DNA from: Candidatus Cloacimonadales bacterium
GTDB taxonomy: Bacteria; Cloacimonadota; Cloacimonadia; Cloacimonadales; JAFGVF01
NCBI GenBank assembly: GCA_963677495.2
Contig: CAXXOU010000001.1
Span: forward strand, 64,001 to 128,000
Length of the DNA: 64,000 nucleotides
Direction: 5' to 3'
In this document: positions 39,001-45,000 of the stretch, piece after piece
Layout of the letters: each line of letters begins with the position of its first letter
Position numbering within the stretch: the first letter of the stretch is position 1
Program-made: the position numbers

Positions 39001-42000
39001 TTGTAGGCCCTGCCAGTGTAAGTGAACAACAAGAGATAATCAAAAGGCTACGCATTCTTGGAGCTAGTACCATAGTTATAGATGGTTCTTTAGATAGAAA
39101 AGCAGTTCTGTTAAATGAAAAGGTTCAAGCCATGATTATTGCTGCTGGTGCTAATTATGGTAATAGTGACTCCATTATCAAAGAACTTCGAAGATTGCAT
39201 ATTCTAAGAAATATTCCGATTGAGAGTGATGTACTAGCCAATCTGGACAATATTGCCATTTTCAAAGCTGGATGGATTCAAACAGAGTTACAGTCGTTAC
39301 TTGGAAATGAAAAGCAATTCCTTGAATTATGTCATGATCAGTATCCAGATAAGATATACATTCCAGGTGCGATTACAGGAGCAAATTGGCATAAACTTGG
39401 TAGTTTCTTTCTATCATTCCATGGGCGAGTTATAATCAGACATCCTTTTAATCTGCAGTTGAATCTAGTGAATGTCGAATTAATCTCAGAAGAGTTAGAT
39501 ATTACGACAGTCTATCCATTTATAATGAATGCAATAGCTGTGAATAGTGGGGCAATCAATGGTAATCACATAGATAGCGAGGCATTGTTAGCGGAAGTTA
39601 GAGAGTATATCCCAGAGTTACCTGTAATTGACATTATGGGCATCGAATAAATATTTCATTTTTTTTATTGCCAAATTTACTCGAAACTGATTAACCTTCA
39701 TTCAATAAGGGGGTTGTCAGATGAAAAACTCGGCAGTTGTAGTTACAATTACCGATAAGGGTTATATAATACCAACCTTTATCTTGATTCTGTCACTAAA
39801 ATATTTCAAAGTACAAGCACATGTAAATGTACTTTGTGTTGGATTATCTGAAGCAGAGAAGAAGCTATTCTCTCAATTTGAGGATGTGAATACTTTTGAT
39901 GCTGATTTGGATAACCATCGCAATCCAACCACTCGAAAAGCAGAAGCTATATTAACAGCTAAAGATGGTGGTTATGAGATGATAAGCTTATTTGACGGAG
40001 ACTGTATAGTAACAGGAGACATAACTCCATTCTTCAGACAAGATGAGCCGTCCTTATCTGCTAGATTCAAATCACCCAAAGAGGATGGTTGGGTGTTCTC
40101 AAAGTATTATCAACCCGATGATATATATGGATACATACCCAAAGTTATACTTGAGCAATGGAAGATGGATGTTGGAGAATCTGAAACACCACGAAGGAAG
40201 AACACAGTTGCTGGAGGTAATCTATCAATTCATAAAGACTACTTATGGTTTATCGATAAGTGGCATACACAAATGATGAAAGTACTTCCTAATTACAACA
40301 CGGGTGTTGCATATGATTACTCACTAACAGCTTATTCTCAACTGGATGAATCAGTGCTAAACTCACTTCTTACTTTTGCTGATAAAGTACCCCCATTAAC
40401 AGCAGGTAAATTTGATACTGATCCAAACATTTATTTAGCTCATCTAGGTCCTGGACGACCTAGATACTGGAAGCGATTCCCTAAAAGAAAACTTGTCTAT
40501 CTTGACTCAATACTTACTTTTATTAAATGGGGAAGAGAGAAAGGATATAGCTTCCCAATACTTTCTTGGCCTTTAAACCCGAAGTTGCGACTGTTTACAA
40601 AGGCTATTGCATATCTTTTCGAGACTAAAGAACTTGCCAAAAAGATAGTAAAAAAGATTTTGATTATCCTACATTTAAGAAAATATCAGGAGGAGATTTG
40701 ATAGAAGAAATGAAAAGAGTAATCATCTTTTTTTTCATGATTATGGGTGGATCGATTTTATTTAGTGCTGGTAGCCATTCATGTTGAGGACCTCCACCTA
40801 AATATGTCGAGTTCGACAATGGAGTTAAGGTTCTTACCAGTGAGTTGTCAAAATACGAAAAAGCTTTTACAGGATGGGAACTAGAGAATGGAGAGTTAAC
40901 AGGTAAAAAGATTAAGTTCATTCAAGTAGCAACAAGTGCTAATGGAAAACACCTGTTTGTTGAACATAGCAAGCTAGATCATTTTTCACGTTATAGTGGA
41001 ATCAAACTTAAAGCGAAGAGATATTTTAAAGCCTTGTTAAAGGGAAAAATAGAAGCTAGGTCCATAAGTACATCCCTTAGGAAATTTGACAACTATGGTT
41101 TTGTATCAAGAGAAGTAAAACTCGCTGATGGTGTTAACTTGTTTGTTTTTTCTAATGAATCCAAAAAAGGTTTAGCTATTCAGGGTCCTAATTCACTCTA
41201 CTTTGATTTCTTTCCCGCTAATAACAGTGAGTTGATAAATAAGATAACCGATATGTTGATTGAATCTAATTTAACTGTTGCGAAAGAACCTCAGAACAAC
41301 TATATTAGTTTACGAGATATAGGAATATCAAAAAAATTTAAGGAAAACTTACAATGAAGAGAACTATCATTTTATCTATTCTAATAGCATATGCTATTAG
41401 CTTATTTGGAGCCGGTTGAGCTCCACCATCGTTTATTACCGGGTCCGGTAATGACCAGAAACATATCGTTTCAGAATTTGAAATGGTACAACACTCAGTG
41501 ACAAAAGACCCCACTGCCCCGGGTGGTATGAAAGAAGAAGTAACAGTAATCGTTAATCTAACAAAGGATGAAAAGACATTAATTTTCCCACATGATAAGC
41601 TTACTAAAAGGACAAAACTGGTTGGTAGTAAAGGGAAAGCATTGAATCTTCTGAACTCAGTCAAAAAGCAGACAAAGATTTGGTCTACTTGTGAATCCAT
41701 AAGAACAATAAGTGCCATCGGGACTGTGAATAAAGAGATTATCATGAATGATAATACAGAAATTCTTCTAATAGATAAAGAGAATAAGCCTTATGGATTA
41801 GCTATCAAGAAAGCTGATGGACTAGCGTTTGATTTCTTTGCACTAGAGTCAGATTATGGTGATATACTAAAAGCAGTTTATAAAAAACTCAATGACTATT
41901 CTCCTGCAGATTGTGGTTCATGTCGGAGAGAAACGATTGACTTTAGAGGATTAGGAACCAGCATCAAGTGATTGCTTTAGTGACACTCTTAATCTTGTGG

Positions 42001-45000
42001 TCAGTTTCTACTTCAGTTTTTGGTAGTAATTGAATGCCTTCGTCTTCTATTATCGGTTTCGGTAATAGCGAATATGAATTTATCAAATCAGATTTTGAGG
42101 ATATAGAATACAAAGAGATTACTGTAACCGGTGCCAGTACCTATGTTAAAGAGAAGGTAACAGTATACGTTAACCCGACTACAAATGGAAAGACACTGAT
42201 TCACGGACATAAGAAGTTAAAAAAGAAAACGCAGTTATATGGATCAAAACTGAGAGCAGTATCTCTGCTTAGTGAGATTGCAAAAAGTAGATCAGTACAA
42301 ACCTATTTTGAATCAAAACGTGTAATTGATGATTATGGAATAGTCTACAAGGAAGTGACGATGAATGATTCAACAATGGTACTTCTATTTGAACCCAAGG
42401 AAGAATCTGTTAGCATTGCATTGAAACCTAAAGATGGAAAAGTCTTTAACTATTTTTCATCAGCTAAGGACTATAAAGGATTGATTGAAAGAGTGTATAA
42501 TAGATTGAATCTCATGGGTCCGAATGAGATGACCACAAAGCAAAAAATGGCTATTGATTTTAGAGGATTAGGAGAATAACTAATCCTCTTTTTTTAATGT
42601 TCTTGTCATTAAAGATTTTATTGCTTCTAACGGATTCTTTTCATTAAAAAGTACTTCGTGCACCTGCTCTGTGATTGGCATCTCGACATCATACTTCTTA
42701 CTAAGAGCATAAACTGAAATAGTAGAATCTACTCCCTCTGCAACCATCTTCATAGTTTCCAGGATTTGGTTAAGAGTCTTACCACTTCCTATCTCAAAAC
42801 CTACATATCTATTACGACTGTGTTTGCTCATTGCTGTCGTTATGAGGTCTCCTATGCCAGATAAACCTAAAAAGGTTTCCGGGTTTGCTCCCATTACTTT
42901 ACCTAGACGCTTAACTTCAGCAACACCTCTTGTTAATAAAGCTCCCATAGTATTGTCACCTAACCCAAGACCTTCTGTGATTCCTGCAGCGATAGCAATA
43001 ATATTCTTAACAGCACCACCAAGCTCTACTCCCATTAGATCATTGGAGCTATATACTCTGAAGTAGTTATTACTGAAGGTATTTTGTACAAGCTTCTGGT
43101 TATCTTTTGTTGATCCGGCAATCACAACAGCAGTTGATACTTCTTTAGCTACTTCTTCTGCATGACTTGGACCCGAAAGTGTCATTATTTTCTCACTACT
43201 AAGTACAGTTAAGGACTCACTTAGAACTTCAGACATTCGTTTTAATGATTGCTTTTCAACCCCTTTAGCTACATTGATAACAGCTTCAATTCCATTGGAT
43301 TTTAAGAGTAGTGGATTCACTTGTTCAGCAACTTTCCTTAGAACCTGTGAAGGAACAGCAAAAAGAAGGATGTCGAACTCTCCGGTAACAACATCATCAA
43401 GGTTATTACTAAAACAGATAGTCTCATCGAGATGGATACCGGGAAGAAAAACGGTATTAGTGTGTGTGTGTATGAGCTCATCGGCTCTTTCTTTATCAAA
43501 TTCCCAAACCTTCACTTCATGTCCATTAACAGCTAAAAGGTTAGCTAATGCCAAACCCCAGCTACCACCACCGATTACTCTAACTCTTTGCATATATACT
43601 CCTAAAGAAAAAGCCGGATAACTCCGGCATAAAAAATCTCAATCTCATACTAATGACTAAAAGTCATCATCGTCATCATCATCATCCCAGTCATCCTCAC
43701 CGTTTACCCAGTCAGGACAGAACAAGGCATCTTCTTCGAAATCCCATCCATCCACGTTTTCTAAGCCGAAACGATTGAGAATATCCTCTTCCCACAACGA
43801 ATATTGAACTGTTCCGTCAGTTACCTGCCAGACCAGTATAGGCTTAGAATACTTTCGCAATTCGATAGTTGGATTCTCTGTCATTTGCAGAAATTCGACT
43901 ATCTTCTCTCTGCGAGATTCCTTTTGCATCATGATTGACACTCCTTACTCAAATAAGTCAAACTTATAACCAAAACCTAAACTGAGAGTATTATCTAAAT
44001 ACTCTTTATATTTAGGTACTGAGTTATATGGAGATTCAACCGTACGATTACAATAAGAATAGTCAAGATGAATATCTATTGCCTTACCAAGATAGAATAC
44101 AAGTGATGGTGAGACAGTTGTTTTTGTATCTTCTCTTTTATAGTGATAATCGTCGCTACCTTGATAGTAACGCTTCTCTAGATCAAAGTCGACGGTAAAC
44201 CTGTATTTTACATCATCCCATGATGTGTCTATCTTCTTGAGTGTAATACCAAACTCATAGATGTCACTTTCATAAGATGAGTCAGATGGGATGGTATCCC
44301 AATCAATATCGTCAGTATAAAGCGCTTGAATATCATCTTCTGTAACAAACTCTTTGAATGAATAAGCAAAGTTTAGATATACACCGGGGAATGAACCTCT
44401 CCAGCCGGCTTTATATGTTGTAGCAACTCCATCATATTCAGTGAAGTACTCATTATGAAAGAGCTCTTCCATTTTACCTTCTGCAAAGAATCGATGTTTC
44501 TTGAGAGCTTGCCAAGACAACTTAACTCTATATTGGTTTTTATCATATTCAAACATCTCATACTCACCTGTTCCATTATAAAGGTGATTTTTATCATCTT
44601 TATAATCTCTCAAATAGTTACCGGGATTAAAACCATATTCTACAGTTAAGTAAAATGGTTTATACATAGCGTTAATTCCCGATAGAATACTGCTTTTTGT
44701 TTTGTCTGAGTTTGATGTATAGTAGTTATAACTAAGCTTAACGAATGGATCTATTGATACATGTTTTTTAAGCTTGAAAGAGGTTTTAGCTCGTACTGAA
44801 GATTTAACAACCAGGTCATCAATTGTCTCAACGAAAGGTAATGAATCACTACCCTCTTCAGCTCTTTCTATATCATAATCGGAAAGGTGCCAAATATTCT
44901 CACTATACTCTGTCTCAAGAGAATAATCAATATTCAAAGGAACTGCAAACAGAGATACAGTTGCTAATAGAAGACTGAAAACTACTAACTTACGCATTAG

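Follow-up and report, generated by a model that had tools for sequence, protein, structure and literature searches.

The three genes g1, g2 and g3, which lie head to tail on the + strand of a 64,000-nt window of a Candidatus Cloacimonadales genome, very probably encode true selenoproteins that belong to an orphan family. Their sequences are best explained as those of a paralogous family, restricted to one genus and not described before, whose small exported selenoproteins would be cleaved by signal peptidase I and would carry selenocysteine (Sec) on an N-terminal arm; we give this composite reading moderate credence. The very beginning of a protein, on a floppy tail, is an unusual place for selenocysteine. 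The selenoprotein reading follows from three observations: the Sec machinery is complete, an in-frame TGA is conserved in 5/5 members with a complete N-terminus, and a covarying SECIS-type hairpin follows each TGA. On the same grounds, the proposal of a new family of small exported selenoproteins, made in a preliminary description of this DNA, is supported.

Gene layout and reading frames

Each gene contains a single in-frame TGA, and once this codon is read through, the N-terminus is hydrophobic and signal-peptide-like in all three. The transcription unit and its surroundings comprise the following features:

39721-40701, + strand: upstream 326-aa gene, ending 8 nt before g1; GT-A / GT8-like glycosyltransferase fold
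40710-41357, + strand: g1, 215-aa read-through gene (MKR... signal peptide, ...SHSC-U-GPPP...)
40785-40787, + strand: in-frame TGA of g1, codon 26, read as Sec; preceded directly by Cys (C-U)
41354-41971, + strand: g2, 205-aa read-through gene (...LFGAG-U-APPSFITGSG...)
41417-41419, + strand: in-frame TGA of g2, codon 22, read as Sec
41968-42579, + strand: g3, 203-aa read-through gene with a GTG start (...VFGSN-U-MPSSSIIGFG...)
42031-42033, + strand: in-frame TGA of g3, codon 22, read as Sec; an ATG lies directly 3'
42562-42597, + strand: terminator-like hairpin of 10 pairs with a T run, directly 3' of the g3 stop

Translation with table 11 yields truncated ORFs only (40845-41357, 41483-41971 and 42034-42579), and gene callers cut short g1, g2 and g3 alike. 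Read-through translation and tblastn on the genome confirm the earlier view of three tandem paralogs that each extend 5' through an in-frame TGA into a signal peptide. Alignments on the genome pair g2 with g3 (38% over 198 aa, E 1.6e-36), g1 with g2 (28% over 169 aa, E 3e-8, beginning at residue 1 and crossing the TGA) and g1 with g3 (30% over 104 aa, E 3e-5), with no fourth copy by tblastn (next best E 0.48). The genes' own stops in g1 and g2 are also TGA and overlap the next start, as ATGA between g1 and g2 and GTGA between g2 and g3. The terminator-like hairpin is likely the end of the transcription unit. The product of the upstream gene has a glycosyltransferase-like fold, yet matched no sequence family; the gene adjoins the selenoprotein family in 3/3 genomes and also occurs elsewhere without it. 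The segment 40600-42700 is identical in contigs of four runs from one sample, possibly the source.

The TGA could instead end a short upstream ORF, with the proteins starting downstream (at ATG 42034 in g3, ATG 41483 in g2 and TTG 40845 in g1) and the hairpin serving as a regulatory or coupling element. Gene callers annotate precisely these downstream ORFs, the hairpin energies fall within those of shuffled sequences, and no Cys homolog anchors the Sec column. The start of g3, which the preliminary description had also called uncertain, is doubtful because its putative signal peptide contains neither K nor R; since an ATG comes right behind the TGA as well, g3 alone could begin downstream. For the family as a whole this arrangement is improbable. 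The short ORFs are canonical signal peptides, sensible only when fused to a cargo, and in 5/5 genes their frame is that of the domain downstream, despite diverged sequences and lengths, whereas the downstream ORFs would give cytoplasmic proteins without export signals. The tight ATGA and GTGA overlaps suit the upstream starts, and the APPSFITGSG... stretch between the g2 TGA and the downstream ATG is conserved as protein in the orthologs G001 and G002.

Selenocysteine machinery and the downstream hairpins

Like the hosts of other SelB-read selenoprotein genes, this genome encodes selA, selB, selC and selD. The selA (535 bits) and selB (323 bits) genes are adjacent; selD (381 bits, over the cut-off) itself contains one TGA. 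The tRNA-Sec(tca) is 95 nt long, and no second tRNA with a UCA anticodon is among the 50 tRNAs found. TGA ends 133 of the 1,357 open frames of at least 300 codons and is otherwise a stop. From these features, the conserved TGA and the hairpins below, selenocysteine is the best reading of the in-frame TGA, and a strongly favoured one. The UGA at codon 22-26 would be decoded by SelB with Sec-tRNA(UCA), directed by a hairpin within the coding region:

40805-40818, + strand: g1 apical hairpin, 5 bp stem (40805-40809 / 40814-40818), loop AGUU (40810-40813)
41433-41454, + strand: g2 SECIS-like hairpin, 9 bp stem (41433-41441 / 41446-41454), loop GGUC (41442-41445), -9.9 kcal/mol
42047-42068, + strand: g3 SECIS-like hairpin, 9 bp stem (42047-42055 / 42060-42068), loop GUUU (42056-42059), -9.4 kcal/mol

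The preliminary description had placed a SECIS-like hairpin after each TGA. These hairpins are real in all three genes, although they had been slightly misdrawn: the loops are GGUC in g2 and GUUU in g3, and the g1 hairpin is spelled out here for the first time. A longer g1 structure that begins at the UGA has a folding energy of -15.8 kcal/mol. The hairpin columns are identical in 5/5 genes, and the small apical loop containing G[G/U] lies 25 nt past the U of the UGA. The GGUC loop occurs in g2, G001 and G002; the E. coli fdhF element has a GGUC loop as well. As in fdhF-type genes with coding-region SECIS elements read by SelB, an in-frame UGA is followed directly downstream, within the ORF, by a hairpin whose small apical G[G/U] loop is 16-37 nt from the UGA, in keeping with the bSECIS consensus. 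The bSECIS model (legend of Fig. 2 in PMC13188914) describes a loop of 3-9 nt, a stem of 4-16 bp, a G within the first two loop positions, a spacing of 16-37 nt and a minimum free energy of -7.5 or lower. It accommodates four of the five hairpins; that of G002 has a C.A mismatch and reaches -4.5 kcal/mol only.

In the hairpin alignment, 86.7% of cells are paired. Compensatory, two-sided change is found in 4 of 9 stem pairs, a level reached by 14/500 shuffles and compared with 0-1 in slid controls, and these counts are thin and not independent, coming from a very small set of related sequences. Of 155,551 genomic TGA triplets, 534 (0.34%) have a stem of at least 9 bp with a G[G/U] loop at 16-37 nt. 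Resampling of synonymous codons gave stem statistics of 29/5000 for g3, 158/5000 for g2 and 154/5000 for G001; those of g1 (775/5000) and G002 (2144/5000) count against the reading. The energy-based tests are weak: z scores against dinucleotide shuffles are not exceptional (g2 -0.9, g3 -0.6, g1 -1.5), and the synonymous-codon test of folding energy gives 79/1000 for g2, 91/1000 for g3, 306/1000 for G001 and 915/1000 for G002. Across the genome there are 84 GGTC-loop hairpins of at least 5 bp, and in 7 cases the hairpin lies behind an in-frame TGA of an open frame; coding potential is present in four of these seven frames, namely g2 and three T9SS-tailed proteins.

Read-through by a standard amino acid (Trp or Cys by a near-cognate tRNA, or Cys on tRNA-Sec) would make these genes encode ordinary exported proteins or lipoproteins. 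UGA is the leakiest bacterial stop codon, and in 2/5 members the U column resembles the position of a lipoprotein Cys. Such decoding is nevertheless very unlikely in a genome with a complete Sec system, in which tRNA-Sec is the sole suppressor tRNA found and the loop type and spacing of the hairpins match those of the genome's other selenoprotein genes; moreover, neither TGY nor TGG has replaced the TGA while the paralogs diverged to as little as 28% identity.

Relatives of the family

The TGA occupies one shared column in all five N-terminally complete members (g1, g2, g3, G001 and G002), which span three genomes of one genus; the family was not found in a third same-genus relative, whose genome is 72% complete. 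This distribution is as previously stated. Upstream of the TGA identity is low, and signal-peptide character is retained across the members. An STCES motif and C-x-x-C cysteines are present in g2 and absent from g1 and g3. G001 is a fusion whose second domain has neither signal peptide nor U; this domain is without three columns of the hairpin-coding segment and contains no small G[G/U]-loop hairpin.

That the genes are decaying copies sharing one nonsense mutation is the least credible of the readings considered. The family is limited to one genus, and in G002 about 65 internal residues are missing and the hairpin is weakened. However, three paralogs of 23-39% identity and two orthologs share one TGA with zero other stops or frameshifts, and the G002-type sequence is seen again in five cluster members from several sources. 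Coding potential is also positive to either side of the TGA, at 0.23-0.35 upstream and 0.35-0.38 downstream; the 1,490 candidate frames interrupted by TGA have a median of 0.03-0.04.

The orphan status claimed earlier is confirmed. No Pfam or NCBIfam family covers g1-g3, the PDB holds no relative by sequence or by fold, and among 1.84 billion representatives there are only six hits, each beginning beyond the U column, and no Cys homolog. According to a review excerpt, nearly all known selenoproteins possess Cys-containing homologs. The family thus differs from fdhF-type selenoproteins in lacking both such homologs and any Pfam, NCBIfam or PDB relative, and also in that its Sec would lie outside a folded redox motif (no UxxC/CxxU), near the signal-peptide junction.

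Signal peptide and the predicted selenocysteine arm

The first 20-25 residues would form a Sec-pathway signal peptide, with hydrophobic cores of about 15 residues that, as read from sequence, are too short for a membrane anchor. The preliminary description had put Sec directly after this peptide, in some members in a lipobox-like context. This part is not supported: 0/5 members fit the genome's own lipobox, and 5/5 carry the signal-peptidase-I-type ending [LIVM]F[AGS], a mark of signal peptides other than those of lipoproteins in this genome. In crude regular-expression sets, used here in place of a trained predictor, that ending occurs in 201/806 signal-like N-termini and in 30/806 at control positions. 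Cleavage directly before Sec agrees with the -3/-1 small-residue rule in only 2/5 sequences. We infer that signal peptidase I most likely cleaves at or just past the [LV]F[AGS] ending, which would place Sec between about positions 1 and 7 of the processed chain; a cut at the ending itself would give about +2 to +7.

In a seleno-lipoprotein, Sec would replace the lipobox Cys, Lgt would diacylglycerylate it as a selenoether, and LspA would cleave before it to leave a lipid-bearing first residue. Genes for both enzymes are present (Lgt, 228 bits; LspA, 109 bits), and as in bacterial lipoproteins (Lgt and LspA substrates, L-[AS]-[GA]-C), a signal peptide of about 20 residues is followed by a chalcogen residue and a Pro/Ser-rich tether. 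A relative's ordinary lipoprotein (locus L050) reads ...LTAC-APPPPP, the residues at -1 and -2 are small in g2 (G-A-G-U) and G001 (A-S-G-U), and a distance of 20-25 residues from the start codon suits either kind of signal peptide. Lipidation is still unlikely. The genome's candidate lipoproteins, likewise drawn from a crude regular-expression set, follow L-x-[GAS]-C, with L, I or V at -3 in 120/171 (L in 77) and G, A or S at -1 in 104/171, and none of the five members, which have Sec for Cys and are off this pattern from -3 to -1, combines [LIVM] at -3 with [GAS] at -1. The residue at -1 is G in g2 and G001, Q in G002, N in g3 and C in g1; the misfit of Q, N and C, already pointed out in the earlier account, agrees with the genome set, in which Q and N occur at -1 in 0/171. 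The residues before U vary, whereas a lipobox would be conserved, and Sec, which is costly and inefficiently inserted, would bring no obvious gain as a mere anchor. None of the literature matches listed describes Sec at a lipobox in title or abstract, and a search combining selenoprotein, "signal peptidase II" and UGA gave no match.

Residues 1-15 of mature g2 score below 50 in its AF2 model (pLDDT 78.8, pTM 0.78), so that Sec is predicted to lie on a disordered, Pro-rich N-terminal arm (U-x-P-P/S). Behind this arm comes a beta-rich domain of about 165 aa for which no relative has a solved structure; fold comparison was uninformative, the highest Z being 4.1 and the lowest Foldseek E 0.049. 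The exposed selenol, neither lipid anchor nor buried catalytic residue, might serve as a reactive handle within the envelope of this anaerobe and bind a partner or cargo reversibly through Se-S, Se-Se or Se-metal bonds. SoxY-type "swinging arm" carriers of the periplasm likewise bear a single reactive chalcogen on a flexible terminal arm and carry covalently bound intermediates; in SoxY this residue is a C-terminal Cys within the motif GGCGG, and its partners are known. The resemblance is one of possible working only, the arm here being N-terminal and the residue Sec, and family and fold searches found no relation to SoxY.

Other exported, thioredoxin-like selenoproteins are the genome's T9SS-tailed W-U-G-Y-C-P proteins and, in the literature, DsbA-like and Prx-like thiol:disulfide oxidoreductases. 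The T9SS-tailed proteins share with g1-g3 a signal peptide followed by an early Sec (U at codon 34-35), and with g2 a GGUC-loop hairpin (at 27 nt). Unlike in g1-g3, their Sec is part of a U-x-x-C redox motif inside a folded domain, and they have a T9SS C-terminal sorting domain and many Cys homologs: in one such family, surveyed across 41 related genomes, TGA is present in 29 of 66 matches and absent from 36.

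Organization, decoding and conservation of the tandem genes

Three paralogous genes, g1, g2 and g3, are arranged head to tail between a GT8-like gene (39721-40701) and the convergent gene gpsA (42580-43593). Each is interrupted by an in-frame TGA codon and very probably encodes a selenoprotein. This computational reading is well supported by the selenocysteine (Sec, U) machinery of the genome, by the position of the TGA in five of five family members and by covariation in the hairpin that follows it.

Genes of the tandem cluster
40710-41357, + strand: g1, in-frame TGA at 40785-40787; table-11 open reading frame 170 aa, read-through product 215 aa
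41354-41971, + strand: g2, in-frame TGA at 41417-41419; table-11 open reading frame 162 aa, read-through product 205 aa
41968-42579, + strand: g3, in-frame TGA at 42031-42033; table-11 open reading frame 181 aa, read-through product 203 aa

Stop and start codons overlap as ATGA (g1/g2) and GTGA (g2/g3), and a terminator-like hairpin with a T run lies 3' of g3. The read-through proteins begin with MKRVIIFFFMIMGGSILFSAGSHSC-U-GPPP (g1), MKRTIILSILIAYAISLFGAG-U-APPS (g2) and MIALVTLLILWSVSTSVFGSN-U-MPSS (g3). In a genome-wide search, g2 and g3 are 38% identical over 198 aa (E 1.6e-36) and g1 and g2 are 28% identical over 169 aa (E 3e-8), the latter alignment starting at residue 1 and hence running across the TGA; the same search revealed no further copy. 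The coordinates and identities bear out the preliminary description of three tandem paralogs, each with an in-frame TGA after a signal-peptide-like start. Contigs from four runs show no difference across 40600-42700; a single sample, which may be the source, underlies all of these runs.

The genome (3.41 Mb, 37% GC, 99.5% completeness, phylum Cloacimonadota), of which the window covers C1:64001-128000, encodes the Sec-decoding trait (selA, selB, selC, selD). The matches to selA (535 bits), selB (323 bits) and selD (381 bits) are above curated cut-offs, selD itself has one in-frame TGA, and a 95-nt tRNA-Sec(tca) is located at C2:364622-364716. Genetic codes 4 and 25 are rejected because TGA is a normal stop and the genome has no UGA-reading tRNA besides tRNA-Sec. 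Across the whole genome, TGA is the rarest stop of the 1,357 open frames of at least 300 codons (TGA 133, TAA 770, TAG 454), and g1 and g2 themselves terminate with it. At C4:243769-243864 (- strand), ARAGORN calls a “tRNA-Cys(aca)” of 96 nt whose extra arm is long; given its poorly paired D-arm and its mismatches, it is taken as a false call.

The family is present in three of 41 related genomes and in three of 232 genomes of the phylum, all three within a single genus: the genome under study and two others, G001 and G002. No match was found in the fourth genome of this genus, which is 72% complete. In both G001 and G002 the locus is again between the GT8-like gene and gpsA. The claim that the TGA is kept at the same place in same-genus relatives holds for all five members with a known N-terminus (g1, g2, g3 and one each in G001 and G002), in which it occupies one alignment column. 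Upstream of this column the five sequences have diverged, yet each retains a signal-peptide-like stretch in the same frame; downstream they share x-P-P/S, and coding potential is positive on both sides.

The G001 member (MKVVILVLTVLFTINVFASG-U-VPPAFITGSG...) is fused in frame with a second, g3-like domain (373 aa in total, locus L015:985-2103, - strand). Because g2-like and g3-like paralogs are joined here, the fusion hints that they act together; a predicted complex of g2 and g3, tried owing to this fusion, gave no verdict (score 0.00). The second domain has neither signal peptide nor U, lacks three columns of the hairpin-coding segment and contains no small G[G/U]-loop hairpin; it is a natural “Sec-less” control. 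The G002 member (MKKIMLLLVVAVIGINLFAQ-U-APPSFITGSD...) has an internal deletion of about 65 residues, and one member of its 90% cluster carries the name Candidatus Zophobacter franzmannii in its source.

Among 1.84 billion representatives, a search with the family profile returned six proteins: three truncated calls of g1-g3, one from G001, one of the G002 type, and one from another organism (P0007/P0009), which is 41% identical to g2 and begins after the U column. Selenoproteins are systematically mis-annotated as truncated genes, and the family illustrates this, all six database entries starting past the U column. Relatives of the family alignment, and likewise of P0007, were searched for in genome contigs and metagenome contigs, and none was confirmed. 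Ten weak matches in the phylum (10 genomes, E 0.002-0.009) are rejected: they are unrelated proteins that resemble the family only in their signal peptide. No Pfam or NCBIfam family matches g1-g3 at E up to 0.01, and a PDB sequence profile search gave no match at E up to 1, in agreement with the earlier statement that the family has no known relatives. The usual independent criterion for selenoproteins is the existence of Cys homologs that align with the UGA column. None aligned with the U column was found among the 1.84 billion representatives or the 232 phylum genomes, of which the three with the family all have TGA.

Hairpins downstream of the TGA codons

A hairpin occupies identical columns in all five aligned TGA regions, with its loop starting 25 nt past the U of UGA.

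Stem, loop and folding energy of the five hairpins
g2: stem 9 bp, loop GGUC, -9.9 kcal/mol
g3: stem 9 bp, loop GUUU, -9.4 kcal/mol
g1: stem 5 bp, loop AGUU, -15.8 kcal/mol only with an extended stem
G001: stem 9 bp in the shared columns and up to 11 bp, loop GGUC, -11.4 kcal/mol
G002: stem broken by a C.A mismatch, loop GGUC, -4.5 kcal/mol

The model of bacterial SECIS (bSECIS) hairpins, as published in PMC13188914, comprises an apical loop of 3-9 nt, an upper stem of 4-16 bp, a spacing of 16-37 nt from the UGA, a G in the first two loop positions and an MFE (minimum free energy) of at most -7.5 kcal/mol. Four of the five hairpins conform to it (g1 only with the extended stem), and G002 fails on energy. 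A SECIS-like hairpin had been described after each TGA, and the shared columns and this agreement uphold that description.

Pairing holds for 86.7% of the cells of the named structure, and both sides change in four of the nine pairs; the compensatory changes are U-A to C-G (twice), A-U to G-C and C-G to U-A. As many double-sided changes were reached by 14 of 500 shuffles, and slid controls gave 0-1. Hairpins with a GGTC loop and a stem of at least 5 bp number only 84 on both strands of the genome; seven sit after an in-frame TGA in an open frame, and the four such frames with coding potential are g2 and three genes for T9SS-tailed proteins, which are other exported selenoprotein candidates. 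Within the genome, GGUC is a signature loop. More generally, of the 155,551 TGA triplets, 534 (0.34%) are followed at 16-37 nt by a stem of at least 9 bp that closes a G[G/U] loop. When synonymous codons were resampled, the observed stem was matched in 29 (g3), 158 (g2), 154 (G001), 775 (g1) and 2144 (G002) of 5000 trials.

The folding energy of the hairpins alone is unremarkable. Dinucleotide shuffling gave z-scores of -0.9 (g2), -0.6 (g3) and -1.5 (g1), and the synonymous-codon MFE test gave 79 (g2), 91 (g3), 6 (g1), 306 (G001) and 915 (G002) per 1000, with 29 and 10 per 1000 for the bona fide selD and prx. The hairpin evidence therefore consists of geometry, loop type, position and covariation rather than stability.

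Signal peptides, position of selenocysteine and protein architecture

In all five members a hydrophobic region of about 13-15 residues ends in [LV]F[AGS] (g1 LFS, g2 LFG, g3 VFG, G001 VFA, G002 LFA), and K or R occurs within the first three residues in four of them (g3 has none). Judged by crude regular-expression sets rather than a trained predictor, as are the lipoprotein counts below, [LIVM]F[AGS] is found at residues 12-30 of 201 of 806 signal- or TM-like N-termini and at the control residues 61-79 of 30 of 806; the commonest residues after the motif in these N-termini are E (27) and Q (26). In sequence, the predicted signal peptides of the family fit the Sec-pathway, signal peptidase I type. 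PMC5837995 describes a habit of Q after the cleavage site for Bacteroidetes, with which LFA-Q-U of G002 agrees; the same paper states that the rule is not valid for the entire FCB group.

Cleavage at the motif would place Sec at +2 (G002), +3 (g2, g3 and G001) or +7 (g1), and cleavage directly before Sec would satisfy the rule of small residues at -1 and -3 only in g2 and G001. Sec was initially described as the first residue after the signal peptide; these predictions place it instead near the start of the mature protein, among its first few residues, and not consistently first.

The further proposal, a lipobox-like context with Sec as the residue modified by Lgt and LspA, is compatible with the presence of lgt (228 bits) and lspA (109 bits) in the genome, but not with the genome's own lipoboxes. 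Among 171 candidate lipoprotein N-termini (M...K/R, followed by a hydrophobic segment free of charges and then C), the residue at -3 is most often L (77), I (24) or V (19) and that at -1 G (58), A (29) or S (17). The residues before U are G-A-G (g2), A-S-G (G001), F-A-Q (G002), G-S-N (g3) and H-S-C (g1). An aliphatic -3 combined with a small -1, the genome-type lipobox [LIVM]-x-[GAS], is found in none of the five; the -1 residues N of g3 and Q of G002 occur in none of the 171 candidates; and the codon at the would-be lipobox Cys (+1) is TGA, not Cys, in all five. The lipobox reading for Sec is weak, and modification of Sec by Lgt and LspA is improbable. Literature searches on selenocysteine at the lipobox of lipoproteins, and on UGA-encoded selenoproteins together with signal peptidase II, found nothing.

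An AF2 model of mature g2 (8 aligned sequences, pLDDT 78.8, pTM 0.78) comprises an N-terminal arm that includes U (residues 1-15, pLDDT <50) and, after it, a beta-rich domain that contains three helices. A fold search with this model gave nothing convincing (best Foldseek E 0.049); in VIA-align the best match is a polo-box-like domain (Z 4.1), and LolA scores Z 2.9-3.0. A conserved I-D-F/L-R-G-L/M-G motif closes the sequence of every member. The cysteine of S-T-C-E-S and a C-x-x-C near the C-terminus are kept in the g2 lineage (g2, domain 1 of the G001 fusion and P0007/P0009); G002, with its internal deletion, keeps C-x-x-C and lacks the S-T-C-E-S cysteine. Since g1 and g3 keep U and lack all of the g2-lineage cysteines, the role of U is independent of them. 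In contrast to thioredoxin-fold selenoproteins, with U-x-x-C or C-x-x-U in a folded motif, g1-g3 have no such motif around U, and U of g2 is modeled in the low-confidence arm. Cys adjoins U in g1 (C-U); g2 and g3 have no Cys near U.

To our knowledge, almost all known bacterial selenoproteins have Cys-containing relatives, and almost all place their Sec at folded redox or metal sites. In contrast, the g1-g3 family is predicted to be exported, has predicted Sec in five of five members with a known N-terminus and no Cys form found, and carries Sec on a predicted disordered N-terminal arm by the cleavage site. This is a new family with an unusual position of Sec; the recoding mechanism is the known one. 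With the features that set it apart, the family offers a clean test of two questions: what use Sec has outside an active site, and whether the export and lipoprotein machinery can handle it.

As a guess, the function would be that of a reactive selenol on the flexible N-terminal arm of an envelope protein. That Sec is deliberately placed at the signal-peptide junction, with processing exposing or modifying the selenol at the extreme N-terminus, is unlikely, and could take two forms. In one, which would concern at least g2 and G001, Lgt would act on Sec and the protein would be the first lipoprotein lipidated through a selenoether; in the other, an N-terminal selenol would serve as a “swinging arm” in the envelope of a strict anaerobe, forming reduction-resistant Se-Se or Se-S links or carrying covalently bound cargo. 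Either form, if true, would mean that Sec has a role away from any folded catalytic site, and this in a family that never had a Cys form.

Other interrupted genes and the genomic neighbourhood

Frames that are interrupted by TGA and have coding potential on either side of it were sought in a crude scan; most of the 214 candidates are noise. Comparison of 21 of these with Pfam left seven whose selenoprotein nature looks real or probable, namely selD, a peroxiredoxin (U at F-T-F-V-U) and five exported T9SS-tailed proteins, of which one lies in the window (20114-21130).

T9SS-tailed proteins with an in-frame TGA
20114-21130, + strand: T9SS-tailed protein (Por_Secre_tail, FlgD_ig), one in-frame TGA, VYCVS-U-GVTPPGS
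C4:1357260-1359125, - strand, outside the window: W-U-G-Y-C-P protein, GGUC-loop hairpin at 27 nt
C4:345843-348731, - strand, outside the window: T-U-G-F-C-P protein, GGUC-loop hairpin at 27 nt

The gene at 20114-21130, in which a 5-bp GGUC-loop hairpin lies 32 nt past the U of UGA, is probably another selenoprotein gene split by gene callers. In the W-U-G-Y-C-P and T-U-G-F-C-P proteins the U motif directly follows the signal peptide. A search of 41 related genomes with the N-terminal 200 residues of the former gave 66 matches, 29 with one TGA, 36 with none and one with TAA, a split that would be the classical Sec/Cys pattern as read from stop counts rather than from an aligned column. The two seem to represent an exported Sec/Cys family with thioredoxin motifs that is widespread in the order. 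Together with these U-x-x-C proteins, the tandem genes are further evidence that Cloacimonadota export several selenoproteins. Searches found no literature on selenocysteine in Cloacimonas/Cloacamonas or on selenoproteins in Cloacimonadota. In two selenoproteome studies the main text makes no mention of lipoprotein, Cloacimon- or secreted, nor of periplasm (PMC13188914) or signal peptide (PMC12013277).

Two loci, 62455-63159 (+ strand) and C1:926102-927703 (+ strand), share an identical 17-residue context around an in-frame TGA (VRNGTRWQ-TGA-KVVQNCQP) and probably belong to a repeated or mobile element.

Genes upstream of the tandem cluster
36210-39650, + strand: lysine-fermentation gene set kdd, kamA and KamB-like, by profile matches
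39721-40701, + strand: GT8-like gene, 326 aa, GT-A / GT8-like fold in the model

For the GT8-like protein, sequence searches gave no Pfam, NCBIfam or PDB match. In its model (pLDDT 83.4) the fold resembles glycogenin, LgtC and GlyE, an adhesin glycosyltransferase (Foldseek E 1.8e-8, prob 1.00, TM 0.36-0.52). The protein has an invariant D-G-D motif and is present in 40 of 232 phylum genomes. The gene adjoins the selenoprotein family in three of three genomes; a role as its dedicated partner is rejected, as 38-47% identical relatives occur in eight other genomes beside unrelated genes, with no family member downstream. In the lysine-fermentation set, kdd (239 bits) and kamA (lysine 2,3-aminomutase, 583 bits) are accompanied by a KamB-like reactivase subunit (186 bits, below the cut-off of 210), and the selenoprotein cluster follows in place of kamD/kamE.
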